A stretch of 64,000 nt of DNA from Vicinamibacterales bacterium (lineage in GTDB: Bacteria; Acidobacteriota; Vicinamibacteria; Vicinamibacterales; UBA8438): contig OY759970.1 in assembly GCA_963662965.1 (NCBI GenBank), positions 3,328,524 to 3,392,523 of the forward strand, read 5' to 3'. Positions 3,592 to 52,580 of this stretch are shown piece after piece. A model generated the notes under the pieces. It ran no database searches. It was given only the letters and a program-made list of their open reading frames with translations, and was not told the DNA's origin. Position 1 is the first letter of the stretch. Every line of letters starts with the position of its first letter. Position numbers and translations under genes: made by a program.

Positions 3592-3816
3592 GCCCCGCAC
3601 GAACGCTAAGGTGTGGTATGAGAGCCACATTCTTGCGGCTCTTCACCGTTGTTAAAAAGCCACAGTAGAAGTTATGGTTCGACCACGTGCTCTACGTGAT
3701 GAACCATAAGTAGTTGCAACAAATAGCTTTGCTTGGCTGACTATGAAACGTACGTTTGAGGAACGTTTTTTGCTTTAACAAATCAAGCGTCATTGGGATT
3801 ACGTAAACTGTCTGGA

Positions 3817-4725
3817 ATGACGACACAGCGAACACTTAGACGTTCCGTCTCCTGCTCGGGTATCGGCCTACACTCGGGGCAGAAAGTCACCCTTCGACTC
3901 AAGCCTGCTCCGATCGATCACGGGATTCGCTTCAAACGACTCGATCTCGACGGTCTTGAGGTTTCCGCGACAGCTGAGCGGGTCGCGAGGATGAACTACG
4001 CGACCGAGTTGGCGCAGGATGCGGCTTCGGTTGGCACGGTCGAGCATCTGCTCGCGGCGCTGGTGGGACTCGGCGTCGATAACGTGAGCATCGAGTTGAA
4101 TCAGGCCGAAGTGCCGATCATGGACGGGAGCGCCGCGTCGTTCGTCTACTTAGTCCATGAAGCCGGTATCCACACGCTCAAGTCGCCTCGACGTTTTCTC
4201 AAGGTGGTGCGACCCATCACGCTGTCGCGCGGTGACAAGCGGATCGCGGTGTATCCGTCGGATTACTTCAAGGTCACCTACAGCATCAGCTTCGACCATC
4301 CGTTGCTGCGGCACCAATCCCGAACCCAACGTGTGACGGAGGATTCCTTCATCGAGGAGATCGCGCCGGCGCGCACGTTTGGTTTCCTCAAAGAGGTCGA
4401 ACAGCTTCGGCAAAAGGGGCTCGCCCTGGGTGGCTCGCTGGACAACGCGATCGTCCTGGGTGAGACAGGTGTCCTCAACGACTCGTTACGATTCGAGGAT
4501 GAGTTCGTGCGACACAAGATCCTCGACGTGATCGGCGACCTCGCGTTGGTCGGTCACCCGATCATCGGTCACGTTGTCGCGCACCGCGGCGGACATGCGC
4601 TCCACGCGAGATTTGCCCAGAAGATTCTTGATGATGTCGACGCCTGGCGGCTCGTCGAGTCGTCGGTTGACCCGGCGGACGACGCCCCCGCTTCGATCAA
4701 GGTCACCGTGCCCGCCAGCTCCTAG
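3817..4725 (+). CDS. lpxC: UDP-3-O-acyl-N-acetylglucosamine deacetylase
   Basis: MTTQRTL... N-terminus, GxGLHSG, PIMDGSA and HRGGHAL motifs. I prefer ATG 3817 over the TTG at 3793 in the ORF track. Confidence 0.92.
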   Translation: MTTQRTLRRSVSCSGIGLHSGQKVTLRLKPAPIDHGIRFKRLDLDGLEVSATAERVARMNYATELAQDAASVGTVEHLLAALVGLGVDNVSIELNQAEVPIMDGSAASFVYLVHEAGIHTLKSPRRFLKVVRPITLSRGDKRIAVYPSDYFKVTYSISFDHPLLRHQSRTQRVTEDSFIEEIAPARTFGFLKEVEQLRQKGLALGGSLDNAIVLGETGVLNDSLRFEDEFVRHKILDVIGDLALVGHPIIGHVVAHRGGHALHARFAQKILDDVDAWRLVESSVDPADDAPASIKVTVPASS

Positions 4726-4889
4726 TGGCCTGTAACAGCTGAATCAGTAACACTCCGCGGGCGTGGGGCATCCCGCCTGCCTGCGTTACTCCTCGGTCAC
4801 AAATGCCAGACTTTCTCCCTCGTCGCGCCTTGCCAGCTGGGTGCCGCGCGCCGCGGAGTGGTACTGATTCAGCTGTTACAGGCCACTAG
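4722..4889 (-). repeat. family A palindromic interspersed element, copy A1
   Basis: Arms 4722-4760 and 4851-4889 are complementary at 38 of 39 positions. Interior blocks are shared with A2-A6. Confidence 0.9.
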
Positions 4890-6700: not shown

Positions 6701-7297
6701 ATGTTGGTGGCCATCGAAGGATTGGACCAGAGCGGGAAGGAAACCCAGGCGCAGCGGTTGCGCGACCACGTCAGAGCGGAAGGACACAAGTCCCGCGTCG
6801 TTTCGTTCCCCGACTACGGAACCTCAATCGGCGAAGAGATCGCCCGTGCGCTCCAGGGCGAGCGAGAGTATGGACCGGAGGCGATGCAGCTCCTCTACGT
6901 CGCGAACCGGTTCGAGCGCAAGGCTGACATCGACCGGTGGCACGACGCCGGCCTCGTGGTGCTGTTCGACCGCTACGTCGCGTCGAGCATCGCCTACGGC
7001 GAGGCGCAAGGGCTCGACCCGGCGTGGCTGACGACGCTTCAGGTGTATCTACCCCAACCGGACCTCACGCTCCTGCTCGACATCGCGCCCGAGACCGCCG
7101 TGAGCCGCAAGACGACCGGGCGCGACCGGTATGAGCAAGATCTGACGATGCTCCAGCGTGTCCGAGCAAGCTACCTCCGCCAAGCCGAACATCCCCAATG
7201 GATGCGCGTCGACGGAGAGCAGCCGAAGGATTCGGTCGCGGCCGCGCTCGCGACAGCCATCGCGCCGCACCTAGCGGCGGGCAGGAGCCCGCGGTGA
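6701..7297 (+). CDS. tmk: thymidylate (dTMP) kinase
   Basis: IEGLDQSGKETQ P-loop, DRY motif, about 198 aa. The last 4 codons plus the stop lie in repeat A3. Confidence 0.88.
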   Translation: MLVAIEGLDQSGKETQAQRLRDHVRAEGHKSRVVSFPDYGTSIGEEIARALQGEREYGPEAMQLLYVANRFERKADIDRWHDAGLVVLFDRYVASSIAYGEAQGLDPAWLTTLQVYLPQPDLTLLLDIAPETAVSRKTTGRDRYEQDLTMLQRVRASYLRQAEHPQWMRVDGEQPKDSVAAALATAIAPHLAAGRSPR

Positions 7298-7457
7298 AAG
7301 TCGCGCTGCATTCGACCGACGATGCATCCGGCAAGGGCCCTTGTTGGTCTTCCATGTAGCGGGGTCGCATACTGTCGGTATTCTCCCTCGTCCCGCCTTG
7401 CCAGGCCGGGCGCCTCGCCGGTCTCGGTGCCACGCGCGACTTTCACCGCGGGCTCCT
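7283..7457 (-). repeat. family A element, copy A3
   Basis: Perfect 24-nt arms (7283-7306 / 7434-7457). Core CGGTATTCTCCCTCGTCCCGCCTTGCC. Confidence 0.9.
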
Positions 7458-11253: not shown

Positions 11254-12090
11254 CTATCTGAGCATGGTCCGCGTGCCCCGGATGCTCTGGTCGGCCAGCG
11301 CCCCGAGAAATGAAGGCAGCAGGCGGTCCATTAGCTCAAAATACGACGAGAGCGCCGGCGAGTTGTGGGAGACGTCGTACAGCACCTCTTCCCGGTGGCG
11401 TTCCGTGTGGAGCGTGACCCCGGTTCCGCCATCGATGAAGATGAACTTGGGGCTCAGCACGAATCCCTTCCGGTCGCGATAGGCCCGCATCGGTACCACC
11501 CGTCGCCGTCCGAAGTCATCGTAGATCTCGCGTTCACGCGCCACCATGCCGGAGCGCTGATGAGAAGTGAAGTAGACCGTGCCGGTGACGATCAGCGGAC
11601 TCTGATGTTCCTCGCCGAGCTGCCGCCAGTAGCTCACGTTGGCGAAGATCGACTCGTAGGCCTCGAGTTCTTCCTCACTGAGAGTCTCGTCCTCTTCCCC
11701 CTCGACATCGTCCTGGCCGTTGTCGTCCTGGGCGGAGAGCGGCGCGCCACTCGTCGTGCGGCCGAGCCCATCGCCGCTGGCCGCGTCTTGGTCGGCCAGC
11801 ACGTCGCCTTCCAGCTCGGCGATCGCCAGGAGATCGAGCACTTCGGCATCGATGACGTCGAGGCGTGATTCGTTGCGCAGCTGGCTGCGTAGCAGACGCG
11901 CCGTCTCGAGATTCGTGTCGACTTCGCTGGTCCCGCCGGCCAGAAAGCCGGCGACGAGTATGCGCTGGAATCGCGCGATCTCCAGCTTTGGCTGAAGTGG
12001 GGTCTCGATCGGCACTTCATAGGAGTTCGTGCATGCCGAGACGCCGAGAAGAAAGAGCGCGCTAACGGTCGTTTTCTGAAAGGCGGTCAT
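11254..12090 (-). CDS. hypothetical lipoprotein with an acidic central region
   Basis: MTAFQKTTVSALFLLGVSAC lipobox. The start lies inside the long ORF-track ORF and overlaps the 3' end of the TPR gene by 29 nt. Confidence 0.6.
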   Translation of the reverse strand: MTAFQKTTVSALFLLGVSACTNSYEVPIETPLQPKLEIARFQRILVAGFLAGGTSEVDTNLETARLLRSQLRNESRLDVIDAEVLDLLAIAELEGDVLADQDAASGDGLGRTTSGAPLSAQDDNGQDDVEGEEDETLSEEELEAYESIFANVSYWRQLGEEHQSPLIVTGTVYFTSHQRSGMVAREREIYDDFGRRRVVPMRAYRDRKGFVLSPKFIFIDGGTGVTLHTERHREEVLYDVSHNSPALSSYFELMDRLLPSFLGALADQSIRGTRTMLR

Positions 12091-12466
12091 AGATTTCCCT
12101 GAAGAGGTCGTAGTTCTGTTGAATATTAATGTCGTTCGGGGCGAGGTCGAGCGCCTCTTCGTAGGCCTCGAGCGCCTCGTCGAACATCCCCTTCTGCTCG
12201 TACGCGATGCCGAGGTTGTTCCAGGCCGCAGGATACGACGGATCGATTTCCGTGGCGCGCTTCCAGCGATAGGTCGCCTCATCCCAGAGCTCGCGCTGCG
12301 CCACTTTCATTCCGAATTCGACCTGCGCTCGCGCGTCGTCACGCACATCAGCCGAAAGGGTGGGCGCGGAAGCGCCAACGAGGGTGATGGCAAGAACAGT
12401 CAGAATGGTCGCAGCCCGTAGTGAAAGCCCCACTGCATTCGACCGGCGCTGCATTCCGTCTGCCAT
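12062..12466 (-). CDS. small secreted TPR-repeat protein
   Basis: Signal-peptide-like LRAATILTVLAITLVGASA, then TPR motifs (AWNNLGIAYEQKGMFDEALEAYEEAL). Candidate starts are 12466, 12454 and GTG 12433, all of them inside repeat A4. Confidence 0.65.
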   Translation of the reverse strand: MADGMQRRSNAVGLSLRAATILTVLAITLVGASAPTLSADVRDDARAQVEFGMKVAQRELWDEATYRWKRATEIDPSYPAAWNNLGIAYEQKGMFDEALEAYEEALDLAPNDINIQQNYDLFREIYDRLSENDR

Positions 12467-12583
12467 CGTTGCTCCTCGGTCAAATACTGCCGGTATTCTC
12501 CCTCGTCACGCCTCGTCCTGGCCGGCCGCTACCTTATTCAACTGGGGTCTCGATGCAACGCGGGGTTTCACCACGGGCTGCGA
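12409..12583 (-). repeat. family A element, copy A4
   Basis: Imperfect 34-nt arms homologous to those of A3. Core CGGTATTCTCCCTCGTCACGCC. Confidence 0.85.
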
Positions 12584-12852
12584 ACTCGTACGGGACGTAC
12601 CCCGAGTGAATCACGGTTGATCGAAATATAGCCAGGTCGTGCGGCTTGGGCAAGTGTCTGGGGAGAATCACTCCAACCTCAAACTAAGATAGCAAGAGGC
12701 GTGCCGTCGGTCCGGTGCCGACGGTGTATTTGCCGCGTCCTCGCGCCCGTCTCACATCGAGAAAAGTGCGTACTGACACACTCAGTGTGACGCTTGGGCG
12801 CGCGGTCCGGGTTCGCCGGCCGTGGTCCGCTTCTTGCGATAACCAGTCCGCC

Positions 12853-16444: not shown

Positions 16445-16716
16445 TCAGACGGGGCGTGCGGCGACCAAGCTTAGACTGGGGGAATATCGCGCTCGGCCGA
16501 ACGGTCGAGCCTCGCGCGCTTTCCCCAGACCCCCTCGCTCGCTCACTCGTGGGGACCCCGAATGCCCCACTCCGTTCGCTAGCGTATGGTGTGGGACAGC
16601 CGAGTCATTCGAAGTACGATCAGGGCGCGCACGGCGCGCCCCCGCCGGCACGGAGTGGGGCGAAAGGGTCCCCGCGAGTGCTGGCCGGTGGGGTCGGGGC
16701 CGTAGGCCCCGTCTAG
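16445..16716 (+). repeat. family B element B1 (X hairpin + full Y module)
   Basis: X hairpin 16476-16528. Internal arms 16544-16575 / 16650-16680. GGGCGCGC-ACG-GCGCGCCC at 16623-16641. Terminal GGGGCC-GTA-GGCCCC at 16696-16710. Confidence 0.9.
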
Positions 16717-16719
16717 ATT

Positions 16720-18129
16720 ATGGTCACAATCATCGGCGGTGGATTGGCCGGCAGCGAGGCGGCATGGCAGGCCGCTTCGCGCGGCGTCCGGGTTTCCCTT
16801 CACGAAATGCGACCGGTGCGCATGACGGCGGTGCATCGTACCGACCGATTGGCGGAGCTCGTCTGTAGCAACTCGTTCCGCGGGGACAAGCTCGAGCATG
16901 CCGTGGGGCTTCTCAAAGAAGAGATGCGGCAGCTCGACTCCCTGGTCATGCGTGTGGCCGACGCGACCCGAGTGCCGGCGGGAGGGGCGTTGGCGGTCGA
17001 CCGCGATCGATTCGCCGAGGGGGTGAGCTCGGCACTCCACGCCGAGCAGCGGATCGAGATCCATCGGGAGGAGGTCGACCACCTTCCAGAGCCGGCTGGT
17101 ACGACCAAACCGGTCATCGTCGCCACCGGACCGCTGACGTCGCCGCGACTGTCGGCCGACGTCACCGCGCTCATCGGTCGTGAGCAGCTGTACTTCTTCG
17201 ACGCGATCAGTCCGATCGTGCACGCAGAGTCGATCGACCACGGGAGAGTGTTTCGGGCGTCGCGCGCCGGACGCGGGAAGCCTGTCGAGGACGCCGCGCC
17301 TGGACGCGCATGCGGGGACGACACAGGAGACGGTGATTACCTGAACTGTCCGATGACCGCCGACGAGTACGGTCGCTTCTATGACGCGCTGACCACGGCC
17401 GAGCTCGCCGAGGTGCACGATTTCGATCGAACGCCGTTCTTCGAGGGGTGTCTCCCGATCGAAGTGATGGCCCATCGTGGTGTCGACACGCTTCGGTTTG
17501 GACCGATGAAGCCGGTTGGCCTGGTCGATCCGAGCACCGGCCGGCGGCCGTACGCGGTGGTCCAGCTCCGCCAAGACAACCTGGCGGCCGATCATTTCAG
17601 CCTGGTCGGGTTTCAGACGCAGCTCAAGTGGCCAGAGCAACGGCGGGTGCTCCGTCTCATCCCGGGACTCGAGCACGCCGAGTTCGTACGACTCGGCATG
17701 ATTCACCGCAATACCTACATCAACGCGCCGACCGTACTCACACCGACGTGGCAAATGCGGAGCCGGCCAGACGTGTTCTTTGCCGGCCAGCTCTCCGGCG
17801 TCGAGGGATACGTCGAGTCTGCCGCGTCGGGTCTTGTCGCCGGCATCAATGCCGCCGCCCTCGCGCGCGGCGAGGTGAGCCGCGCGCTTCCCCGCACGAC
17901 AGCGATTGGCGCGCTGGGGTACTACGTGTCGCACGCGGCCGCCGAGAACTATCAGCCGACAAACATCGCGTACGGTCTGATCCCGTCGCTCGACAACCCG
18001 CCGCGCGGCCGTCAGGCGAGGCGCGGGGCGCTTGCGGCCCGCGCCCTGGCCGACCTGGCCGCGTGGCGGTCGCGCGGGTGGGGGGCGGACCATGATCAGA
18101 CCAGGGGAATATCACCCTCGGTCGCATGA
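16720..18129 (+). CDS. trmFO: methylenetetrahydrofolate-tRNA-(uracil54-C5)-methyltransferase
   Basis: VTIIGGGLAGSEAAWQ FAD motif and Gid/TrmFO-like length. The last 12 codons are encoded by repeat B2. Confidence 0.92.
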   Translation: MVTIIGGGLAGSEAAWQAASRGVRVSLHEMRPVRMTAVHRTDRLAELVCSNSFRGDKLEHAVGLLKEEMRQLDSLVMRVADATRVPAGGALAVDRDRFAEGVSSALHAEQRIEIHREEVDHLPEPAGTTKPVIVATGPLTSPRLSADVTALIGREQLYFFDAISPIVHAESIDHGRVFRASRAGRGKPVEDAAPGRACGDDTGDGDYLNCPMTADEYGRFYDALTTAELAEVHDFDRTPFFEGCLPIEVMAHRGVDTLRFGPMKPVGLVDPSTGRRPYAVVQLRQDNLAADHFSLVGFQTQLKWPEQRRVLRLIPGLEHAEFVRLGMIHRNTYINAPTVLTPTWQMRSRPDVFFAGQLSGVEGYVESAASGLVAGINAAALARGEVSRALPRTTAIGALGYYVSHAAAENYQPTNIAYGLIPSLDNPPRGRQARRGALAARALADLAAWRSRGWGADHDQTRGISPSVA

Positions 18130-18306
18130 CGGAGTCGCGGGCGCTTCCCCCGGACCCCCCTCGCTCGCTTGCGTATGTTGGGCGTAGCCGGCTTGTTCGA
18201 AGTACGAGCGGGGCGCGCAGGGCGCGCCCCAGCCGGCACGGAGTGGGGCAAATGGGGTCCCCACGAGTGCCGGCGGCGGGGTTCGGGGCCGCAGGCCCCG
18301 TCTAAG
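18094..18306 (+). repeat. family B element B2 (X + Y, with a 37-nt internal deletion relative to B1)
   Basis: Collinear with B1 except for loss of the left internal arm. The terminal hairpin is present. Confidence 0.9.
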
Positions 18307-18318
18307 TAAGACGGACTC

Positions 18319-31382: not shown

Positions 31383-31572
31383 CTAGTGGCCTGTCCAAGC
31401 CAAAGCGACAGCGCTCCGCGGGCGGGGCATCCCGCAAGGGCTGGCGTTATGACCTCGCCTGGTGGGGTCACAAATGCCCAATTTGCTCCCTCGTCGCACC
31501 TTGCGGGGGCCGGGCGCGTCTGTCGATCAGCGACCACGGACTGCTGTCGATTTGGTTCGGACAGGCCACTGG
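31383..31572 (-). repeat. family A element, copy A2
   Basis: Same termini and interior blocks as A1. Over the 31-nt arms there are 26 Watson-Crick pairs plus 3 G-T pairs. Confidence 0.9.
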
Positions 31573-37494: not shown

Positions 37495-37556
37495 GGCGCG
37501 CACGGCGGCGCCCCCGCGAGTGCCGGCGACGAGGTTCGGGGCGGTAAGCCCCGTCT
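37494..37556 (+). repeat. family B truncated Y module (B4)
   Basis: GGGCGCGCACGGCGGCGCCC...CGCGAGTGCCGGCG...GGGGCGGTAAGCCCCGTCT. Confidence 0.75.
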
Positions 37557-37561
37557 GGGTA

Positions 37562-38095
37562 ATGATGCGGATCGAGATCGAGGTCGACGGGACGATGCAC
37601 GACGTCACAATCGATGCGATGACCAGCGCGCCGGGGCGCTTCCTCGTCTCCTGGGGCGGGACGACGCATGAAGTCGATGCACGCGTGGTCGAGCGCGATC
37701 GGCACGGGATGCTGCTGTCGCTCGTTCGGATGGGCGGCGATGCTACGAGTCGACAAGTCCGTTGCAGCGCGGTCGAGCGCGGGACGATGACGGTGAGGGC
37801 CGCCGGGGTCGATCACCGCGTCGTGATCAACGGGAGTCGTAGGCGGGTCGACCTCCCAGAGGCCGGCGATGGGGGCGGAGGTGTGTCCCGGTTGAAGGCG
37901 CCGATGCCAGGCAAGGTGGTCCGTGTCCTGGTCGCGCCGGGGGACGATGTCGACGCACGACAGCTGCTGGTCGTGGTCGAAGCGATGAAGATGGAGAACG
38001 AGCTGACCGCGGCACGTGCCGGTACCGTGACCGAGGTGCCGGTCAGCGAGGGGGACTCGGTCGAGTCGGGCCGGCTCCTCGTGGTGATCGAGTAG
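37562..38095 (+). CDS. biotin carboxyl carrier (biotinyl/lipoyl domain) protein
   Basis: C-terminal APMPGKVV...EAMKMENE biotinylation motif. ATG 37562 is the first ATG after repeat B4. Confidence 0.8.
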   Translation: MMRIEIEVDGTMHDVTIDAMTSAPGRFLVSWGGTTHEVDARVVERDRHGMLLSLVRMGGDATSRQVRCSAVERGTMTVRAAGVDHRVVINGSRRRVDLPEAGDGGGGVSRLKAPMPGKVVRVLVAPGDDVDARQLLVVVEAMKMENELTAARAGTVTEVPVSEGDSVESGRLLVVIE

Positions 38096-41100: not shown

Positions 41101-42357
41101 GGGACCATGCGGCTGATGGCGCAGATTGGCGGTTCGTTCCAGGAACCGGTTCTGACCGGTGAGGTGCGGATCGCGAACGGCCGGCTTCGCCATTTCTCGC
41201 TGCCGCATTCGCTCGACGCGCTCGACGGACGCGTCGTCTTCGAGCCTGGGGGCGTGCGGCTTGATGAACTGACGGCACAGTTTGGTGGGGGGGCGGTCCG
41301 CTTCGGGGGTCGGATCGGCCTACAGGGATATCGGATTGGCAACCTCGGCGTGACCGCCAGCCTCGAGGACACGACTTTGCGCCTCGAGGATATCCGGTCT
41401 CGCGTCGACGCGGAGCTGACGCTGCGCGGCCCGATCGAGGCTCCGACGCTCGGCGGCGTCGTCAACGTCCAAGATGCCATCTGGCTCCGGCTCTTCCAAT
41501 CGCCCACCAGGCTGATTGACCTCTCTGGGGGGGACTCGACGCCGGCCACCGATGCGGAGACGAGCATCCCGCTGCAGTACGACCTGCGCATCTCCGCGCC
41601 CTCGAGTCTGCGGATCTCGGACAATCGCGCACAGATCGTCGCCAGCGCCGAGCTTGCCCTGCGGGGAACCTACGCCCGACCGACGCTGGTGGGAAACATC
41701 GAGATCGAGCGGGGGCAGGTCTACTTCGAGGGCAATCGATACCGGGTGACGCGGGGCAATGTCGGCTTCGCGAACCCGACCGAGATCGAGCGGTTCTTCG
41801 ACGTTGAGGCGGAAACCGACATCCGCGTGCCTGGTCAAACGTATCGCGTCACTATCGGGTTGAGCGGGACGGTCGACCGTCTGGCGCCACCGACGCTTGA
41901 GTCCGACCCGCCGCTCCAGCAGTTCGAGATTATCGGATTGCTGCTCGGCGATGTCCGTGACCCGCAGCAGGCGGAGATCCGGACGCTGCGGGCCCGTGAA
42001 GCCTCACAGCAGGAGCTCCTGCAGGCGGTGGGCGCTCGGCTACTTACGAATCCGATTTCGTCCGGAGTCGGCGGCGTCATGCAGCGCTCGTTTGGCGTCG
42101 ACACCTTCGAAATCGTCCCCTCGCTCGACGATTCGGCTGCGCACCAGTCGACGCAGTTGATCCCGACGGCGCGGGTGCTGATCGGCCGACGTATTTCCGA
42201 CCGCGCGCACGTCACATTTTCTCGCGCGGTCAGCGGAAACAATCAGGACCTCATTGTGATCCTTGAGTACGACGCGAGCGACCGCCTCTCGTGGGTGCTG
42301 TCGCAAAACGAGGACCGGACCTACGCGCTCGACTTCCGGGTCAGGCACGCCTTCTGA
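38101..42357 (+). CDS. tamB: translocation and assembly module protein TamB-like (AsmA/DUF490 family)
   Basis: 1418 aa. N-terminal TM anchor, long beta-rich repetitive body. Placed immediately upstream of, and overlapping, an Omp85 gene. Confidence 0.8.
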   Translation: MADERLPDDREPETPPAPMESDAAAEATGAVTAPRPWWRRPWVRLRRYSRRTVIVLIALAAAGLVSVVSIDLGPSLRAQAEQQLSNQIDRPVSIGRFGTYLLPGRFLIEDLVIGGPNPGDRPFFVGDRIVISTAWLPLLLNREFLVDSVDLDGWRMLVESFEGGEHTFPPFVGRRDDDGSTTESTVKLGGGDEPDPENDAAATDAAEDEEEGRRLFVTTVQYLRAHNGEFVYDDYGVPWSIVARNIDLTMTKSTGYGGQASFHGGTVQIGDFEPMTTDWEATYEVDGGLVEFTRMDLEMDGLEAVLDGTVDMLNWPSADIQITESSIDAPTMKEVFFAKDNFTTTGDATYTGEFHLFDGGRELTGTFVSENFTFGDLDFQPIDGDLVWTRDRFEITRARSGFYGGDLQFSYAMKPLGDEEPTIATLATEVDGMAVAPLFDALGLTGARPLGALGGEVFLEWPLSSFADRRGHASLNVTPEDGVPLQSRGVRPPSIRVGWGYAGQPFESDGEPWRFPLGSEIDLTFGPDGIELEPSWMATPLTAVEFVGQTAWGDESRIPFEVVSADWQESYRLMASIMTAFGRPTGEIAVAGYGSMSGVMHGAFLAPRIETTFDGDDVRAWNVDWGHGAGEMVVEGGFLDVTDGLFRDATSALRVDGRFAFGSPPTGEDDINASFELDGVPAQNLRDAFGIEGYLIDGPLYGDFRLYGEYERPFGFGRLRIGAGTAYGESFDQTDAGLRFDGEGVWLDGLTVRKGAGEITGAMYVRWNGTYSVNADARGLDLATSSLFDRPGPGVSGLLDFSISGVGAFEEPRYQIRGTMTDLAIAGADVGQVTGRLDVQDDVMALELEAASPTLAVSGSGRIELTDAARSELRFRVTNTTLDPFVRTLQPDMPEATTMVASGTILVQGPLADVDQLGVDATVEQLDLTLFDYAVTNDGPIRLLFDRNVLQVAEMHLQGEGTALDLSGEVSLADDRFTLNANGDASLGILQGFFPDVRGRGTMRLMAQIGGSFQEPVLTGEVRIANGRLRHFSLPHSLDALDGRVVFEPGGVRLDELTAQFGGGAVRFGGRIGLQGYRIGNLGVTASLEDTTLRLEDIRSRVDAELTLRGPIEAPTLGGVVNVQDAIWLRLFQSPTRLIDLSGGDSTPATDAETSIPLQYDLRISAPSSLRISDNRAQIVASAELALRGTYARPTLVGNIEIERGQVYFEGNRYRVTRGNVGFANPTEIERFFDVEAETDIRVPGQTYRVTIGLSGTVDRLAPPTLESDPPLQQFEIIGLLLGDVRDPQQAEIRTLRAREASQQELLQAVGARLLTNPISSGVGGVMQRSFGVDTFEIVPSLDDSAAHQSTQLIPTARVLIGRRISDRAHVTFSRAVSGNNQDLIVILEYDASDRLSWVLSQNEDRTYALDFRVRHAF

Positions 42358-45320
42358 TGTTGCTCCCTCGTCACGCCGTGCACGGGCCCGGCGCGATCTG
42401 TGCCTGTCTCGTCCTCTGGGCGGGCCCGGCGGCGGCCGGGGCGGAGGTCGACGAATTCATCGGCCAGCGTGTGGTCGAGGTCGAGTTCGCCACAGATGGG
42501 ATCCCGATTAACGACCCCGCCGTTCGCGAGCTGGTGGAAACGACCGCCGGCGAGCCGCTCGCGATGCGCGAGGTCCGTGAGAGCTTGGCGCATCTCTTCA
42601 GCCTCGGTCGCTACGGCCACGTTGCGGTCGACGCCTACCCACGCGCCGGCGGTGTGGCGCTGCTGTATGAGCTGAGGCCGTTCGAGCTCGTCGAGCGCAT
42701 CGAGCTCTCCGGTAATCGGGTGCTCGCCGCCGACGACGTGCGGCGCGTCGTCGTCCAGCGCCACGGCGAGGTCTTCCCCGCCAGCGCGGCCGCCGCGGTG
42801 GCCGATACCGTGCGCGCGTACTACGCGGAGCGCGGTTTTCTGTCACCGCGGGTCGACGCGGAGCTGCGCGGGTCGGCGACCGAGCGCACCCTTCGCTTGA
42901 CGATAGTTGCTGGCGCGCGCGCCCGCGTCAATCGGTGGTTCATCACCGGCGTCGCCTCGGCGTTGCTCAACACGCGGCTGCGAGCTCGTCTGGGCCTCGT
43001 CGACGGCGACGTCTACGACGGCGCGAGGCTCGATCAGCGGTTGAGCGAGTACGAGGGCGAGCTCCGCGCGCTGCAGTACTACGAAGCGCGTCTCTCGCAC
43101 ACGGTGGAGCGACGCACAGACGCGGACATCGACGTCCGTTTGAACATCCTGCGCGGACCGCGCATCACGGTGACGCTGAGCGGCGACGAGGTGCCGGACG
43201 CGCGGCTCGGCGATCTGGTGCCGGTCGGACGCGAGGCGAGCGTCGACGAGGACTTGCTTGAGGATGCCGACCGACGGATCGCGGCGCACTTGCGGTCGCT
43301 CGGCTACCGCGACGCGGACGTGACGCACACGGCCGACGGGACCGCGGACGAGCTGTCGATCGTCTTCGCGGTGACCCGCGGCCCGTTCTATCAGGTGGTT
43401 GCCGTGCGGATTCGAGGCAACGCGAGCGTGCCGACCGAGGTGCTCCTGCCGGTGGTCAACATCACGTCTGGCGATCCGCTCATTGTCTCCGACGTGGACG
43501 CCGGGTTGGCCGCCATCGAGGAGCGCTACCAGCAGCTCGGCTATGCGACCGTGCGCGCGACCAGAACCTTCGCCGACATCGCGACCGGTGGCGCTGCGGG
43601 TACCGTGATGCAGACCGTCGATATCGACATCGTCGAAGGGCCGCGGATGACCATTGCCGCCTTGGTGTTCGACGGGGTCGAGGCGTGGCCGTTTGACAGA
43701 CTCGAGGAGACGGTCGCCGCACGTATCGGCGAGCCTTTCTACGGACCGCAGGTGAGCGACGACCGCGATGCGCTGCTGTCGCTCTATCTCAACGACGGGT
43801 ACGAGCAGGCCGTGGTGGTCGTCGAGCCGCAGTTTGCGGACGACCTGCGCACCGTCGACCTGGTCTTCCGCGTCGACGAAGGGCGTCAGGTACTCGTCGA
43901 TCACGTGTTGATCGTCGGTAACCGTCGGGTCGACTCCGAGACGATTCGTGGCGAGCTCGCCCTCGCGCCCGGCGACCCGCTTGGTCTCGACGACGTCGCG
44001 GAGACCCGTCGCCGGCTCAACGCGCTGGGGATGTTTCGTGGACTCGATATCCGGGAGTTTAGCCATGGTTCTGTCGACCGACGCGATGTCATCATCGAAG
44101 TGGAGGAGGCGCCGGCGACGACGCTGGCGTACGGCGGCGGGCTCGAAGTGTCGCAGCGGATTCGGCGTGACTCGGGCGACGAGGGAAGCGCCGCGGTGGA
44201 GCGGATCGAGTTTGCGCCGCGCGGATCGTTCCAGATCGGGCGCCGCAACCTGTGGGGCAAGAACCGGTCGATCAACTTGTTTACCCGTGTGAGTGTCCGG
44301 CGTAAGAACGATCCATCCGAGCCGGGTTCGGCTGACGCGGCCCGAACGCTTGGGTTTAACGAGTACCGGGTGTTGGGGACCTATCGCGAGCCGCGGTCGT
44401 TCCGGCTGCGCTGGGATGTGCTGATGTCGGGTTACGTGGAGCAGGCGATTCGACCCGGGTTCGATCTGTTCACCCGCGGTGTCACGGCACAGGTGGTGGC
44501 GGGATCCGGTGATAGGACGAGCACGACGCTCGGCTACCGCCTGGGGAGCAACGACACGTCGAATCGACAGCTGGACCCCGAGGACAGCAATATCGTCGAC
44601 CGACTGTTTCCGGAGGTGCGACTGTCGTCATTCCGGCTGAGCCGGCTTCGGGACACCCGCAACGATCCGTTCGATCCGACACGCGGCACGGTCCTCACCG
44701 CCGAAACCGAGCTCGCCGCTCGCTCGATCGGGTCCGCGGTCGGGTTTACCAAGACATTTCTGTCCGGTTCGTTCTTCCGCGAGCTGCGCGACGCGTCTCG
44801 TCTCGTGTTTGCCGCCAGTGCACGTGTCGGTCTGGCGTGGGGTTTTCCGCAGACGTATCATCTCGAGGGCCCCGGCGGACCGATGGAGGTGTCGCAGACG
44901 CTCGACCTGCCGATCAGCGAGCGCTTTTTTGCCGGAGGGGATAACACCGTGCGTGGATTCGCCCTCGACCGCCTGGGCGATCCGCGTGAGGAACCGGGCG
45001 GCACCATCGATCAGGACGGCTTTCCGCAGGGCGGTAACGCCATGCTCATCTTTAATACCGAGCTACGTGTGCGGCTGACGCGCGCCGTCGGACTCGTGAC
45101 GTTTCTCGACGCCGGGAACGTTTATGATGATGTGCAGCACGTGAGCCTGCGTCGTATCCGCGGCGGCGCTGGCTTCGGGGTACGGTACAGTTCGCCAGTC
45201 GGACCGATTCGCGTCGACCTCGGCTTCAAGCTCGGTGAGCGGCACTTCTTTGGTGACGAGACGAGTCGGACGCAAGAACCGCTCACCGCGCTTCACATCA
45301 GCATCGGCCAAGCGTTTTAG
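42357..45320 (+). CDS. Omp85-family outer membrane protein assembly factor (BamA/TamA-like)
   Basis: Signal peptide, several POTRA-like units, C-terminal barrel with RGF/GGD-type motifs (FFAGGDNTVRGF) and a terminal ...ISIGQAF. ATG 42357 overlaps the tamB TGA. Confidence 0.85.
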   Translation: MLLPRHAVHGPGAICACLVLWAGPAAAGAEVDEFIGQRVVEVEFATDGIPINDPAVRELVETTAGEPLAMREVRESLAHLFSLGRYGHVAVDAYPRAGGVALLYELRPFELVERIELSGNRVLAADDVRRVVVQRHGEVFPASAAAAVADTVRAYYAERGFLSPRVDAELRGSATERTLRLTIVAGARARVNRWFITGVASALLNTRLRARLGLVDGDVYDGARLDQRLSEYEGELRALQYYEARLSHTVERRTDADIDVRLNILRGPRITVTLSGDEVPDARLGDLVPVGREASVDEDLLEDADRRIAAHLRSLGYRDADVTHTADGTADELSIVFAVTRGPFYQVVAVRIRGNASVPTEVLLPVVNITSGDPLIVSDVDAGLAAIEERYQQLGYATVRATRTFADIATGGAAGTVMQTVDIDIVEGPRMTIAALVFDGVEAWPFDRLEETVAARIGEPFYGPQVSDDRDALLSLYLNDGYEQAVVVVEPQFADDLRTVDLVFRVDEGRQVLVDHVLIVGNRRVDSETIRGELALAPGDPLGLDDVAETRRRLNALGMFRGLDIREFSHGSVDRRDVIIEVEEAPATTLAYGGGLEVSQRIRRDSGDEGSAAVERIEFAPRGSFQIGRRNLWGKNRSINLFTRVSVRRKNDPSEPGSADAARTLGFNEYRVLGTYREPRSFRLRWDVLMSGYVEQAIRPGFDLFTRGVTAQVVAGSGDRTSTTLGYRLGSNDTSNRQLDPEDSNIVDRLFPEVRLSSFRLSRLRDTRNDPFDPTRGTVLTAETELAARSIGSAVGFTKTFLSGSFFRELRDASRLVFAASARVGLAWGFPQTYHLEGPGGPMEVSQTLDLPISERFFAGGDNTVRGFALDRLGDPREEPGGTIDQDGFPQGGNAMLIFNTELRVRLTRAVGLVTFLDAGNVYDDVQHVSLRRIRGGAGFGVRYSSPVGPIRVDLGFKLGERHFFGDETSRTQEPLTALHISIGQAF
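42358..42405 (-). repeat. family A core fragment (A6) embedded at the tamB/Omp85 junction
   Basis: TTGCTCCCTCGTCACGCCGTGCACGGGCCCGGCGCG matches the A2 core TTGCTCCCTCGTCGCACCTTGCGGGGGCCGGGCGCG at 29 of 36 positions. Confidence 0.6.
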
Positions 45321-45960
45321 TGCGCTGCTGTCGGCCCTCCTGTGGGCGGCACCGCTCGGAGCCGTTGCCCAGAGCCTCGACCGCATCGTGGCCGTCGTCG
45401 CCGGCCACGTCATCTTGGCCTCCGACGTGAGGGCCTTCCTCGAGTTCGGCCTCATCGAGGTCGAGGCTTCTGGCTCTGTCTCTGACTCTGAAGAAGACGA
45501 GCGCACGCGCGCCGGATGCGCCCTGACGCGGCTGATCGAGCGACGTCTCGCGCTCGACGAGGTCGACCGATATCGGGTGGCCGCGCCGCGGCCAGAACAG
45601 ATCGATCGCGAGCTCGCTGCCCTCCGCGGTCGCTTCAGCGATGAGGAGGCGTTTGCGGATCTCCTGGCGGCGGTGGGGCTCGGACTGCCGGACCTCAGGC
45701 AGATTCTGCGGGACAATGTCCGGCTGGAGGCGTATCTCGCTGGACGCTTTGGTTCGGCGGATCGGCTGAGTGAGTCGGAGCTGCGCGCCTACTACGCCGC
45801 CAACCGTGACGACTTCACCGACGCGGGGCGCGGCGTCGCGTTCGACACGGTTCGTGCGCAGGTCCAAGCCCGGCTGTGGGCGGAGCGGCGCGCGGCCCTC
45901 GTCGAGAACTGGACTGCCGGTCTCGCTCTCCGCGGGGACGTGACCCGGTTTGAGCCATGA
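45235..45960 (+). CDS. periplasmic SurA N-terminal-domain-like chaperone
   Basis: Signal-like LSALLWAAPLGAVAQS, then DRIVAVVAGHVILASDV and helical repeats. The start is uncertain (GTG 45235, TTG 45250 or GTG 45253) and all candidates overlap the Omp85 3' end. The stop lies at the edge of repeat B3. Confidence 0.55.
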   Translation: MSGTSLVTRRVGRKNRSPRFTSASAKRFSALLSALLWAAPLGAVAQSLDRIVAVVAGHVILASDVRAFLEFGLIEVEASGSVSDSEEDERTRAGCALTRLIERRLALDEVDRYRVAAPRPEQIDRELAALRGRFSDEEAFADLLAAVGLGLPDLRQILRDNVRLEAYLAGRFGSADRLSESELRAYYAANRDDFTDAGRGVAFDTVRAQVQARLWAERRAALVENWTAGLALRGDVTRFEP

Positions 45961-46113
45961 TCAGACCGGGGGAATATCGCGCTCGATCGAGCAACGGAGT
46001 CTCGCGCGCTTCCTGGTCAGACGGGGCCTGCGGCTCCGAACCCCGCCGCCGACACTCGCGGGGGGCCCCTTTGCCACGCTCCGTGCCGGCGGGGGCGCGC
46101 CGTGCCCGCCCTG
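45959..46113 (+). repeat. family B element B3 (X module followed by an inverted Y module)
   Basis: The X module is collinear with B1/B2. 46017-46110 is the reverse complement of the B1/B2 Y module. Confidence 0.88.
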
Positions 46114-46261
46114 ATCTCAGACTCCCCCATCCGGGCTCAGCGAGAGCGATTGTTTCCCGGCCTGCGTGGGTGCCGGTCGGACATATCCCGAAAGAAACCG
46201 TCTGCCTTTAGCGAGACGAAGCACCCCTGTATCTGAGGGCGGCTGGATGTTTCCCGAGGCG

Positions 46262-52124: not shown

Positions 52125-52250
52125 GGCGCCGGCATTCGGCCGCCGATGCATCCCGCCAGGGGCGGCGTTGGGCGTTGCATGAGCGCGGTCGAATACTACC
52201 GGTATTCTCCCTCAGTCTTTGGCCGGGAGCGATATTCCCCTGGTCTGATC
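52125..52250 (-). repeat. family A element A5, fused to a family B X-module end
   Basis: Core CGGTATTCTCCCTCAGTCT, followed by the reverse complement of GATCAGACCAGGGGAATATCG at 52230-52250. Confidence 0.8.
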
Positions 52251-52580
52251 TTGGCCCCATCCGAAGTAGGCGAGGGCGACTAGCAGCGCGCTAAATCCGG
52301 CGCGCGCCAGTTGGGGCGCGAGCAAGAGCTCACCGTAGACGTGCGGATCATTGTGGAGGCTGATCGACTGAAGCCCGAGGAGGCCGCTGACGGCCAGCGC
52401 CAGTCCGCCGGGGAGCGAGACCCGCACCAACGCCGCGGCCAGCGCGAGGACGCCGCCCGAGAGCATCCGCCACAGGTTGGCCCACCACTCGAGCGTGCCC
52501 GAGCCGATGAGGTCGGCGACACCGACGACAACGTCGTACACGCCGTAGACCAACATCCCGAGCGCCGCGGCTCTCAGCAT
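52212..52580 (-). CDS. small integral membrane protein (about 4 TM)
   Basis: 122 aa, hydrophobic. The last 14 codons (QDQTRGISLPAKD) lie in repeat A5. Confidence 0.5.
   Translation of the reverse strand: MLRAAALGMLVYGVYDVVVGVADLIGSGTLEWWANLWRMLSGGVLALAAALVRVSLPGGLALAVSGLLGLQSISLHNDPHVYGELLLAPQLARAGFSALLVALAYFGWGQDQTRGISLPAKD

Follow-up and report, generated by a model that had tools for sequence, protein, structure and literature searches.

A copy of a dispersed MITE, here called A4, has inserted into the gene for a small, apparently secreted TPR protein of an uncultured Vicinamibacterales bacterium, and translation of this gene now probably begins inside the element, the likeliest start being the ATG at 12466. 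The element-free orthologous loci, the remains of the former start, the in-frame fusion, an insertion sequence with the same ends and a second fusion at polA in another organism bear on this account, which we judge probable as a whole. The first-pass annotation of this DNA had described homologous hairpin arms and a start region taken from a repeat, while overlooking that the repeat is a MITE with a parent insertion sequence (IS). Coordinates refer to the window, that is, the whole 64-kb stretch of DNA analyzed, which contains four full and two partial copies of the repeat, all six on one strand; bit scores are those of covariance model R1:

4722..4889, minus strand: A1, full copy with different arms (CTAG TGGCCTGTAAC...), the common core and CTAG/CTAG flanks; 77.3 bits
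7285..7455, minus strand: A3, full copy of A4's subfamily, between two convergent ORFs
12412..12580, minus strand: A4, MITE copy of 169 nt, aligning end to end with 47 other copies and absent from orthologous loci
31383..31572, minus strand: full copy of the A1-type subfamily; 35.2 bits
42306..42393, minus strand: degenerate core remnant; 14.7 bits, E 0.16, a weak match
52132..52213, minus strand: A5, 3′ part only, a member of another repeat family replacing the 5′ part; 19.7 bits, model positions 25-60

A MITE family and its parent insertion sequence

The repeat is about 160 nt long (family mode, 158 nt), forms a hairpin of about 60 bp and ends in terminal inverted repeats (CAGCCCGTGGTGAAA... 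and ...TTTCAC(C/T)ACGGGCTG). Its core occurs at more than 117 loci in the genome collection, mostly in Vicinamibacterales MAGs, and the copies lie in unrelated contexts, mostly at gene 3′ ends or between convergent genes. CTAG is the left flank in 26 and the right flank in 22 of 54 full copies, many having it at both ends, and three loci carry matched 4-bp duplications of another sequence: TTCA/TTCA (L112), TTTA/TTTA (L030), and CCAG/CCAG (L042). Orthologous empty sites are found both for the TPR gene (L118, L119, and L120) and for polA (L126-L134). A related MAG, outside this window, holds a 1.47-kb IS (L106:1562-3034) flanked by CTAG/CTAG, whose ends are identical to those of the family, with which it shares a 20-nt terminal repeat, CAGCCCGTGGTGAAAGTCCC. 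This IS encodes a 468-aa transposase with DUF772 and DDE_Tnp_1 domains (PF05598, E 1.3e-17; PF01609, 24.8 bits against a cut-off of 23). Under the curated cut-offs of NCBIfam the protein scores 155.8 bits against 270 for IS1182 and 80.5 against 140 for IS5_4, and it is therefore a distant member that we name IS5/IS1182-like only. The family is thus a MITE, presumably mobilized, as the common ends suggest, by an IS5/IS1182-like DDE transposase. Across MAGs from several phyla, one and the same core is combined with five or more sets of ends that are unrelated to one another.

An origin from IS630, with a TA duplication inside CTAG, had been suspected from a DDE_3 transposase that adjoins the locus in a conspecific contig. 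It was rejected on account of the matched non-CTAG 4-bp duplications and the identical-ended IS with DUF772/DDE_Tnp_1; the ends of the DDE_3 element differ. Carriage by phage was likewise rejected, the viral contig collection holding no match to the family. Our search of the published literature found no MITE of this kind in Acidobacteria. In Rfam, the whole window gave one tRNA and nothing else at gathering score, and E-value scans of A4, A1, and A3 gave chance hairpin matches to plant miRNA models only.

Insertion of A4 into the TPR gene and a probable new start of translation

The sense strand of A4 is the minus strand of the window. Its ends (CAGCCCGTGG...CTACGGGCTG) match the terminal repeats of the family, and within it there are only spurious short ORFs and no transposase gene. 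The element delimited earlier as 12409-12583 is real, although the family consensus confines it to 12412-12580, the wider extent having taken in 3 nt of near-palindromic flank on each side. The features of the locus are as follows:

12062..12466, minus strand: TPR gene, coding for 134 aa when read from ATG 12466; the MITE contributes codons 1-18 and the first base of codon 19
12408..12411, minus strand: 3′ flank of A4, CGAC (sense), degenerate copy of the target duplication, now in codons 19-20 (GCG ACC)
12412..12444, minus strand: 3′ arm of the A4 outer stem, now coding for SNAVGLSLRA of the TPR precursor
12431..12433, minus strand: GTG, another in-frame candidate start, enclosed in the outer stem, with P(unpaired) 0.01
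12444..12530, minus strand: conserved apical core of A4, GGCG.GACGAGGGAG, then the covarying 5-bp hairpin, then GACCGAGGAGCAACG; covariance model R1, 70.6 bits, E 4e-16
12452..12454, minus strand: conserved ATG of the family, alternative start, in 46 of 48 copies and 17 nt from GAGGAG; P(unpaired) 0.68 in A4
12464..12466, minus strand: ATG, likeliest present TPR start, 5 nt past GAGGAG and opening ORF 12062-12466; P(unpaired) 0.52
12472..12477, minus strand: GAGGAG, Shine-Dalgarno-like, in the 3′ strand of the core; P(unpaired) 0.67 in A4, family mean 0.69
12547..12580, minus strand: 5′ arm of the A4 outer stem, including the terminal inverted repeat
12568..12570, minus strand: TGA in the MITE terminal repeat (GTGGTGAAA), ending the frame of the former start (GTA CGA GTT CGC AGC CCG TGG TGA)
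12581..12584, minus strand: 5′ flank of A4, TTCG (sense), degenerate copy of the 4-bp target duplication; the family mode is CTAG
12589..12591, minus strand: former start codon, GTA in the window, GTG in the orthologues and in the conspecific contig L122
12625..12653, minus strand: promoter-like site upstream of A4, TTGCCC-17-TATATT, also kept in the orthologues that lack the element

At the orthologous loci L118 and L119/L120 there is no element, and the gene opens with GTG in the context ...CCC GTG CG. ... ATT CTG, the window's counterpart being ...CCC GTA CGA G TTCG[element]CGAC C ATT CTG. Because these orthologues start with GTG just upstream of the position of A4, the comparison of loci places the insertion in codons 3-4. 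Excising A4 together with 4 nt gives back the codon count of the orthologues. The TTCG and CGAC flanks differ from each other and each departs from CTAG at two of four positions, so that the target duplication of A4 is read from the family and from this reading-frame arithmetic. TPR homologues are mostly 115-125 aa long, and their Met aligns at LRAATIL of the window's protein. The earlier proposal that the TPR gene took its start region from the repeat thus finds support in the comparison with orthologues.

The course of events is reconstructed as follows. A4 entered an ancestral site of approximately GTG CGA GCTAGC ATT CTG, in the orientation of the gene. The ancestral promoter would still stand upstream, so that the whole element would be transcribed within the mRNA; transcription from this old promoter is what we infer from its conservation. 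The old start codon now opens a frame stopped by the TGA in the 5′ terminal repeat of the element and, since the old frame is closed in this way, translation of the TPR protein would have to begin within the element. The 3′ half of A4 is open and in frame with the TPR gene, and between the element and the mature protein there is no canonical in-frame start, the first beyond the element being the GTG of D-V-R, which lies past the putative signal peptide. Initiation would most likely be at ATG 12466, 5 nt past the GAGGAG of the conserved, largely unpaired apical core, and 18-19 element-encoded residues (MADGMQRRSNAVGLSLRA-; MADGMQRRSNAVGLSL) would stand in place of the old Met-Arg-x-x, giving the signal peptide a longer, positively charged n-region. 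By eye, the basic n-region, the hydrophobic h-region and the A-x-A cleavage motif of this putative Sec-type signal peptide read MADGMQRRSNAVGLSLR / AATILTVLAITLVGASA / PTLSA-D in the window and MRTK / ILIVLAATLVVLFA / SPLSA-D in the orthologues. In the mRNA, a hairpin with a predicted energy of about -83 kcal/mol would pair the 5′ UTR with codons 9-19 and could depress expression.

The choice among starts within the element turns on spacing and accessibility. GAGGAG had been described as preceding the ATG of a small ORF shared by the copies and continuing in frame into the TPR gene; the continuation, as ORF 12062-12466, holds, but GAGGAG lies 17 nt before that ATG (12454) and 5 nt before ATG 12466. 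An ATG 5 nt past GAGGAG is found in A4 only, in one of 80 cores, the consensus spacing of the family being 17 nt. The sequence therefore points most likely to ATG 12466 (MADGMQRR...) rather than 12454, and it is ATG 12466 that we infer to be the actual start. Initiation at 12454 (MQRRSNAV...) or at GTG 12433 (MGLSLRAA...) would likewise be supplied by the element, and seems to us an unlikely though respectable alternative. ATG 12454 is the conserved ATG of the family (46 of 48 copies) and is on a par with ATG 12466 in accessibility (P unpaired 0.68), and GTG 12433 would yield a protein of 123 aa, near the 115-125 aa of the homologues. Moreover, Shine-Dalgarno motifs appear sparse upstream of the other genes of the window, which leaves the weight of GAGGAG uncertain; if such motifs are little used in this genome, its spacing may not matter. 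Against these points, GAGGAG lies 17 nt away from ATG 12454, the outer stem sequesters GTG 12433 (P unpaired 0.01), and ATG 12466, the sole such ATG in 80 cores, needed two substitutions relative to the nearest copies and looks like a change that followed insertion. A start at GTG 12433 had earlier been treated as counting against recruitment from the repeat; since this GTG is itself internal to the repeat, that case does not apply.

Several lines of evidence argue that the TPR gene is alive and under purifying selection. Its dN/dS is 0.092-0.096 against the element-free orthologues, compared with 0.113 between those two orthologues, and, as the gene is identical in conspecific contigs, the selection so measured covers the whole divergence from the orthologues and not strictly the time since insertion. 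Eight contigs, drawn from several samples, carry the same intact ORF, and five conspecific contigs are identical in the gene. A comparable fusion exists at polA of Ca. Palauibacter (L081), where the same MITE occupies the first codons with its ATG in frame and the 5′-3′ exonuclease domain of PolA begins at residue 19. A 94%-identical relative (L125) retains a deleted remnant of the element at polA, and more distant polA orthologues have their own ATG and no element. The polA fusion is an independent second case.

Two further readings can be weighed against these data. The insertion may have inactivated the TPR gene, leaving a decaying pseudogene whose open frame is coincidental: one-third of insertions in the orientation of A4 would be in frame by chance, long open frames are typical of high-GC DNA, and the old start has mutated to GTA in the window strain. 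However, a dN/dS of 0.09-0.10 equal to that between intact orthologues, an undamaged ORF that does not vary among those eight contigs, a gene without lesion while the flanks have diverged at two of four positions each, a conserved promoter, and an A4-specific ATG 5 nt past GAGGAG all speak for a functioning gene, and at polA, in two related genomes, decay of a dispensable gene cannot be the explanation. We regard decay as very improbable. Still less credible, to the point that we give it hardly any weight, is the idea of a non-mobile element, resident at the locus as a cis-regulatory RNA or small-RNA gene, for instance a leader of the TPR operon. A strong covarying structure with conserved unpaired nucleotides, situated between promoter and gene, would suit such a role; the copies in unrelated contexts do not, and the duplicated target sites, the parent IS, and the orthologous loci without the element contradict it. 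Nor does Rfam offer a match.

Strand-specific pairing of the hairpin

The arms of A3 and A4 are homologous, as first noted: the window has two occurrences of AGCCCGNNGTGAAAGNNNNNCTGCATTCGACC and no more, one at 7286-7317 (A3) and one at 12413-12444 (A4), whereas shuffled sequences are expected to have none. The blocks in which the arms differ (CG vs. TA and TCGCG vs. CCCCA, with partner arms CGCGA vs. GGGG) also read as described. Over the 53 consensus pairs, A3 and A4 are identical at 37, and at 5 both sides have changed and still pair. Among the rest, 3 pairs that are G-C in A3 appear in A4 as G·U when the minus strand is read, and would be A·C were the plus strand the RNA, one such mismatch having been pointed out in the first-pass annotation; 5 are broken in A4 and 2 in A3. 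Such compensation is a property of the whole family, RNAalifold on 48 copies giving a consensus structure of 53 pairs, 23 of them with double changes.

The pairing is preserved on the minus (sense) strand. Across the 48 copies the sense pairing has G·U in 217 cells and A·C in 21; columns with at least two such cells number 24 for G·U and 6 for A·C, and those with at least five, 10 and 0. Private mismatches, seen in a single copy, are 15 G·U and 9 A·C. The consensus energy is -71.9 for the sense and -19.8 for the antisense strand, and the sense MFE is the lower in 46 of 48 copies. For A4 itself, the minus-strand RNA folds at -83.3 kcal/mol (z -4.8) and the plus-strand RNA at -72.0 (z -2.8). The covariation score of the core, to be read with the relatedness of the copies by descent in mind, is 0.303 against 0.146 in shuffled alignments, with none of 500 shuffles reaching 0.303 and slid controls at 0.05-0.08. 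The apical hairpin, 5 bp long and no part of the terminal repeat, covaries as well (CG 33 / UA 27 / GC 4 at one pair, UA / GC / AU at another). RNA is thus presumably the level at which the hairpin matters, and the compensated differences between A3 and A4 would have been inherited from separate sub-lineages of a family that keeps its long hairpin on the sense strand.

A different interpretation is that the compensated changes are a by-product at the DNA level, with both ends fitting one transposase, and that neither the hairpin nor the strand preference it seems to show has a function in RNA. In its favor, the outermost 15-20 nt are genuine terminal inverted repeats common with the IS, private mismatches are only 15 G·U vs. 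9 A·C, orientation is unbiased with respect to GC skew (56 of 105), and the bias relative to neighboring genes is weak (17 vs. 8 in tandem intergenic regions). However, compensation spans about 60 bp per arm, well past the 20 nt common with the IS, the covarying 5-bp apical hairpin is no terminal repeat, and multicopy mismatches are strongly one-sided (24 vs. 6 columns and 10 vs. 0 at the two thresholds), when a protein binding duplex DNA would have no reason to favor G·T over A·C on one strand. We therefore consider a DNA-level origin somewhat unlikely, and a role for the RNA the better reading of the hairpin.

The small ORF read earlier on the minus strand is present in all three copies for which it was described: ATG CAT CGT CGG TCG AAT GCA in A3, ATG CAG CGC CGG TCG AAT GCA in A4, and ATG CAT CGG CGG CCG AAT GCC in A5. 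Its ATG, whose absence from most copies would, by the first-pass annotation, have spoken against recruitment, is kept in 46 of 48. As a coding unit the ORF is rejected, since it runs into two downstream frames (LSPRAA vs. PFATGC*) and its codon positions lack coding constraint, the nonconsensus fractions at positions 1, 2, and 3 being 0.089, 0.104, and 0.132. Of the two kinds of constraint that had been proposed for it, coding and structural, the structural one applies: the ORF is conserved because of where it lies in the stem.

Three other ideas about the hairpin were set aside. A self-cleaving ribozyme had been suggested by CUGACAA, which resembles CUGAUGA of the hammerhead; in the alignment these positions vary as a paired stem (CTGAC/GTCAG, CTGGC/GCCAG, GTGG/CCAC) and the catalytic G is missing. 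The idea of a preference for one replication strand (single-stranded DNA), which arose from the six same-strand copies of the window, is unsupported in the family as a whole, where orientation shows no bias relative to GC skew (56 of 105). The odd 5′ inner segment of A4 was considered as an adaptation freeing the start region, and dropped in view of similar segments in the related copies L013, L102, and L104.

Significance and comparison with known systems

The conserved apical core is common to MITEs with different ends. On a speculative model, to which we give little weight, the core is a strand-specific structured RNA module, serving either as a portable translation-initiation cassette or as the site of a host RNA-binding protein. 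The module would consist of a closing helix GGCG/CGCC, a purine-rich internal loop GACGA / GAGGAGCAA, and a 10-bp apical hairpin with tandem G·A, and it would have been kept through at least five exchanges of transposon ends while spreading across phyla in marine or host-associated MAGs. As a cassette, it would offer an exposed Shine-Dalgarno-like sequence and an open frame running out through the 3′ end. If so, the element would be able to survive at gene 5′ ends and sometimes be adopted there, the TPR gene of this window and the polA of Ca. Palauibacter being two instances.

Whatever the core does, the locus is a well-controlled natural example of a selfish repeat becoming part of a gene, in which one can identify the locus both empty and filled, the start that was lost, its probable replacement, and the parent IS. 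For annotation, it follows that in these Acidobacteriota MAGs the length of orthologues alone cannot give gene starts near such repeats. Copies abound in phyla that have been little studied, and the conservation of the family, stronger in the interior than at the ends and on one strand only, is unusual for a MITE; the conserved interior is a lead, as it may be a new RNA motif or protein-binding motif.

In most respects the family resembles MITEs of the IS5/IS1182 type, which are short, lack a transposase, end in the same terminal inverted repeats as a full IS, make a 4-bp duplication with preference for CTAG (YTAR-like), and occur as many dispersed copies with long hairpins and with filled and empty orthologous sites. 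Unlike those, it is most conserved in its interior (the apical core of about 60 nt) and not at its ends, combines this core with its several unrelated end sets in several phyla, and keeps its pairing on one strand only. REP/REPIN elements, mobilized by RAYT, are also dispersed extragenic palindromes with long hairpins, often at gene 3′ ends. However, REPINs have conserved arms and a variable loop, make no target duplication, and are partnered with a Y1 (HUH) transposase, whereas the family described here has a DDE-type IS as partner, 4-bp duplications, and a conserved loop region.

As gene parts, the closest parallels are REP2 and the palindromic elements of Rickettsia. REP2, like A4, is a dispersed repeat that gives chromosomal genes a translation start and part of the 5′ UTR. 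REP2 lacks terminal inverted repeats and carries its RBS-ATG module in the consensus, whereas the consensus ATG here is 17 nt from GAGGAG, the well-spaced ATG occurs in A4 only, and A4 uses the gene's own promoter. Rickettsia palindromic elements (RPE) occur in frame within protein-coding genes (Ogata 2000, cited in PMC3184786), as do BOX, ERIC, and the MITEs of Anabaena. Like A4, these are palindromic mobile repeats that a coding sequence tolerates because they remain open in the frame of the host gene, to which they add a peptide; RPEs are internal and read through, whereas A4 blocks the old start with a stop and gives a new initiation site and N-terminus. Fusions of repeats to genes are thus already known, and the TPR case is a clean, comparatively documented instance of them rather than a new system.

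Insertion of a hairpin element at the start of the TPR gene

The long inverted repeat at window 12409–12583 lies at the 5′ end of a gene for a small predicted secreted TPR protein (ORF 12062–12466, minus strand). It is one copy, A4, of a dispersed family represented in the window by four full and two partial copies, all with the same sense strand:

4722–4889 (−), A1, full copy
7285–7455 (−), A3, full copy
12412–12580 (−), A4, full copy
about 31383–31572 (−), full copy
42306–42393 (−), partial copy
52132–52213 (−), A5, partial copy

The first-pass annotation had described homologous, compensated arms in A3 and A4, a mini-ORF (ATG CA(T/G) CG. CGG (T/C)CG AAT GC.) shared by A3, A4 and A5, and a TPR gene that appeared to have recruited its start region from the repeat. 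The observation is real, and its interpretation is supported. The arm pattern matches the window exactly twice, at 7286 (A3) and 12413 (A4), with no match in shuffles. Of the 53 pairs in the family's consensus structure, A3 and A4 share 37 unchanged; 5 more differ on both sides yet still pair, and 3 that are G-C in A3 are G·U on the minus strand of A4. Another 5 are disrupted in A4, and 2 are disrupted in A3. A4 folds at −83.3 kcal/mol (z −4.8) as the minus strand and at −72.0 kcal/mol (z −2.8) as the plus strand, and A3 (−105.6 kcal/mol) and A1 (−107.7 kcal/mol) fold more stably. The mini-ORF is found in all three copies, and that of A4 shares the frame of ORF 12062–12466.

Comparison with orthologues bears out the recruitment. 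The loci of the two closest TPR orthologues lack the element, and in both a GTG start precedes ATT CTG: ...ACGTCCC GTG CGA ACG AAA ATT CTG... in L118 and ...GTTCCC GTG CGG GCA AGC ATT CTG... in L119 and L120. The window reads ...ACGTCCC GTA CGA G TTCG [169-nt element] CGAC C ATT CTG..., and minus the element and one 4-nt flank it regains the orthologues' four codons ahead of ATT CTG. Assuming a CTAG target, the site before insertion would have read GTG CGA GCT AGC ATT CTG and encoded MRASIL, the present L119 N-terminus. Distant TPR homologues are mostly 115–125 aa, with a Met aligned to the L of the window's LRAATIL; together with the element-free orthologous loci, they mark the element-free state as ancestral. 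A promoter-like site upstream, TTGCCC-17-TATATT (12653–12625), is kept in all three loci. Conspecific contigs carry a few SNPs (12589, 12599, 12518, 12743). In conspecific contigs from a different strain (L123 and L124), an IS630-type (DDE_3) transposase gene (L123:116–673) occupies the place of the window's dprA side of the intergenic region. Some 100 bp upstream of the TPR promoter, near window 12750, the sequence becomes homologous to the window again.

From the old start, the frame GTA CGA GTT CGC AGC CCG TGG TGA now stops at TGA 12568–12570, within the element's terminal repeat. The old start codon (window 12589) is GTA in the window strain; the conspecific contig L122 has G there and retains GTG. 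The first canonical in-frame start past the element is the GTG of D-V-R, which follows the predicted signal peptide, and a secreted protein must therefore start within the element. There, ATG 12466 lies 5 nt past GAGGAG, with unpaired probabilities of 0.67 for this Shine–Dalgarno (SD) motif and 0.52 for the ATG; ATG 12454 lies 17 nt past it (0.68), and GTG 12433 is buried in the outer stem (0.01). The predicted start is most likely ATG 12466; it is not certain, because SD motifs do not stand out ahead of the other window genes. Among 80 cores of the same type, ATG 12466 is found only in A4, which has CAACGATGGCAGACGG where the nearest copies have CAACGCCGGCAGACGG; an origin by change after insertion would fit this pattern. 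Purifying selection acts on the TPR gene, with a dN/dS of 0.092 against L118 and 0.096 against L119 (L118 vs L119, 0.113). Its sequence is identical across eight contigs from several samples. A short upstream ORF (12534–12671, minus strand) starts in the TPR 5′ UTR, crosses the MITE 5′ arm in a different reading frame and stops at a TAA in the AT-rich inner segment of A4; it would share the TPR mRNA but is probably meaningless.

Identity and spread of the element

The repeat is a MITE. CTAG occupies the 4 nt outside the ends of about half of the copies, and other flanks are often equal on both sides (TTCA/TTCA, TTTA/TTTA, CCAG/CCAG), as is characteristic of 4-bp target duplications. A 1.47-kb IS in a related genome (L106:1562–3034; CTAG/CTAG flanks) has ends identical to those of the MITE over 15–20 nt and encodes a 468-aa product with DUF772 and DDE_Tnp_1 domains. 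Its best NCBIfam models, IS1182 and IS5, both score under their curated cut-offs, so we name this partner only IS5/IS1182-like. Copies at gene 3′ ends may reflect mere target choice, since CTAG is rare in high-GC DNA and many of its occurrences there come from TAG stops. In A1, the left CTAG (window 4722–4725) includes the TAG stop of ORF 3793–4725, and CTAG-targeted insertion right at stop codons may explain the clustering of copies at gene 3′ ends.

A pattern from the conserved centre, run on a collection of species-representative genomes, found >117 loci, the majority in Vicinamibacterales MAGs and others in Bryobacterales, Ca. Palauibacter, Ca. Rariloculus, Nitrospirales, Nitrospinota and Myxococcales MAGs; about three matches (L060, L073, L109) are plainly chance. 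Copies of the main subfamily are most often 158 nt long and share the consensus CAGCCCGTGGTGAAACCCCGCGT.GCACCGAGAGCGGCGAGGCGCCCGGCTGACAA GGCGCGACGAGGGAGCA-hairpin-T.GACCGAGGAGCAACGC AGTCAGGCGGGATGCATCGCCGCTCGAATGCAGCGGGGCTTTCACCACGGGCTG. Near-identical copies of this subfamily turn up in MAGs labelled in their records as Vicinamibacterales, Bryobacterales, Ca. Palauibacter (Gemmatimonadota) and Ca. Rariloculus (L001–L117). Many of these MAGs share long-read assembly projects of marine or host-associated origin. The pattern suggests either horizontal spread or binning errors. No Rfam family matched the repeat in scans of the window and of copies A1, A3 and A4, and the repeat was absent from the viral contigs searched. 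A second, unrelated repeat family occupies window 16450–16720, 18075–18309, 37507–37562, 45940–46116 (inverted) and 52214–52263, with the modules GATCAGACC.GGGGAATATCGCGCTCGG...GCGCTT.CCCC.GACCCCC and GATCAGGGCGCGCACGGCGCGCCCC.GCCGGCACGGAGTGGGGCAAA.GGGTCCCCGCGAGTGCCGGCGGCGGGGTTCGGGGCCGCAGGCCCCGTCT; it has no Rfam match at gathering score, and one of its copies cuts A5.

Strand-specific structure and the conserved core

In an alignment of 48 full copies, RNAalifold gave a consensus of 53 pairs, and compensatory double changes occur in 23 of these. The first-pass annotation had noted that one A-C mismatch would become a G-U pair if the minus strand were the RNA, and family-wide pairing is indeed kept on the sense strand, with 217 G·U against 21 A·C cells. 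Columns with at least 2 mismatch cells number 24 for G·U and 6 for A·C (at least 5 cells, 10 and 0), the consensus fold has an energy of −71.9 kcal/mol on the sense and −19.8 on the antisense strand, and 46 of 48 copies fold more stably as sense. Private, single-copy mismatches are only 15 G·U to 9 A·C, so most of the asymmetry appears to come from changes that many copies inherited, in other words from the propagating lineages. Co-variation of the ends alone could arise because both ends must fit one transposase, but this reading stops short of the inner 40 bp of each arm and of the small apical hairpin, which covaries freely (CG 33, UA 27, GC 4 at one pair; UA 45, GC 11, AU 3 at another). 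For covariation the core scores 0.303, compared with 0.146 in shuffles and 0.05–0.08 in slid controls.

Orientation tests were weak or negative. Copies show no bias relative to local GC skew (56/105); by crude gene calls, 17 copies in tandem intergenic regions are co-oriented with the genes and 8 opposed, and convergent regions exceed divergent ones by 18 copies to 6. All six window copies (4722–52213) have the minus strand as sense, and plus-strand GC skew is positive throughout; given the lack of family-wide bias, their shared strand is probably chance.

The mini-ORF ATG is retained in 46 of 48 main-subfamily copies, and 37 of the 48 have no stop in its frame through the 3′ end. However, a role as a coding unit is ruled out: one-base indels shift its downstream part into two frames (LSPRAA vs PFATGC*), and across the 48 copies variation is about equal at codon positions 1, 2 and 3 (0.089, 0.104, 0.132). 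Conservation of the ATG is explained by structure; in the consensus fold it sits in a stem, forming G·U and C-G pairs beside a bulged A.

The centre of the element is more strongly conserved than its ends, and one centre is joined to at least five different arm sets. Variable core positions were read from copies found by a covariance model, not by the pattern.

Parts of the core and arm sets that carry it
Core, closing helix: GGCG/CGCC
Core, 5′ strand: GACGA
Core, helix: GG-GA-GC.../...GC-GA-CC, tandem G·A
Core, loop: 5 nt
Core, 3′ strand: GAGGAGCAA
Arm set 1: CAGCCCGTGGTGAAA...
Arm set 2: (CTAG)TGGCCTGTAAC...
Arm set 3: (CTAG)TGCAGTGATCGC...
Arm set 4: GGTTTTCTGACGAGG..., 106-nt elements
Arm set 5: AGGGTCCGTCACGAAATAACC..., 270-nt Nitrospirales element, two inverted cores

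The two-core MITE (L003:4511–4779, 270 nt) has different terminal repeats, of 35 nt, is near-identical in L006 and L038, and is hosted by Nitrospirales and Nitrospinota MAGs. The core might bind a protein, be a site of processing or expose a ribosome-binding sequence, and this conserved, strand-specific core is a side observation worth follow-up.

A second fusion and known repeat–gene fusions

In Ca. Palauibacter (Gemmatimonadota; L081:1050–1229), the same MITE lies in the first codons of polA, the DNA polymerase I gene, after ATG TCG ACC CC and before the conserved SLFLLDGYALIYRAFFA. The MITE ATG is in frame with polA, the 5′-3′ exonuclease domain begins at residue 19, and the stretch from the element to that domain contains no canonical start. 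A relative 94% identical (L125) has an internally deleted MITE remnant of ~70 nt at the same place (about 530–600), and distant polA orthologues (L126–L134) carry no element and have their own ATG 8–10 codons ahead of P(T/I)L(F/Y)LLDG. By these alignments, the polA case is a second, independent predicted MITE–gene fusion. Other in-frame candidates have their own start codons downstream of the element and are probably 5′-UTR insertions.

The repeat family is undescribed in the literature searched, which is not proof of absence. A4 belongs to a known kind of repeat–gene fusion: repeat open frames fused to chromosomal genes at 5′ ends, at 3′ ends or internally have been reviewed for RPE, BOX, ERIC, Anabaena MITEs and Neisseria REP2 (Delihas 2011, PMC3184786), and REP2 carries its own RBS and ATG (PMC3184786). 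The A4 record is unusually complete, comprising the empty site, the filled site and the parent IS; among such fusions, A4 is a MITE exaptation that is ordinary in kind but clean.
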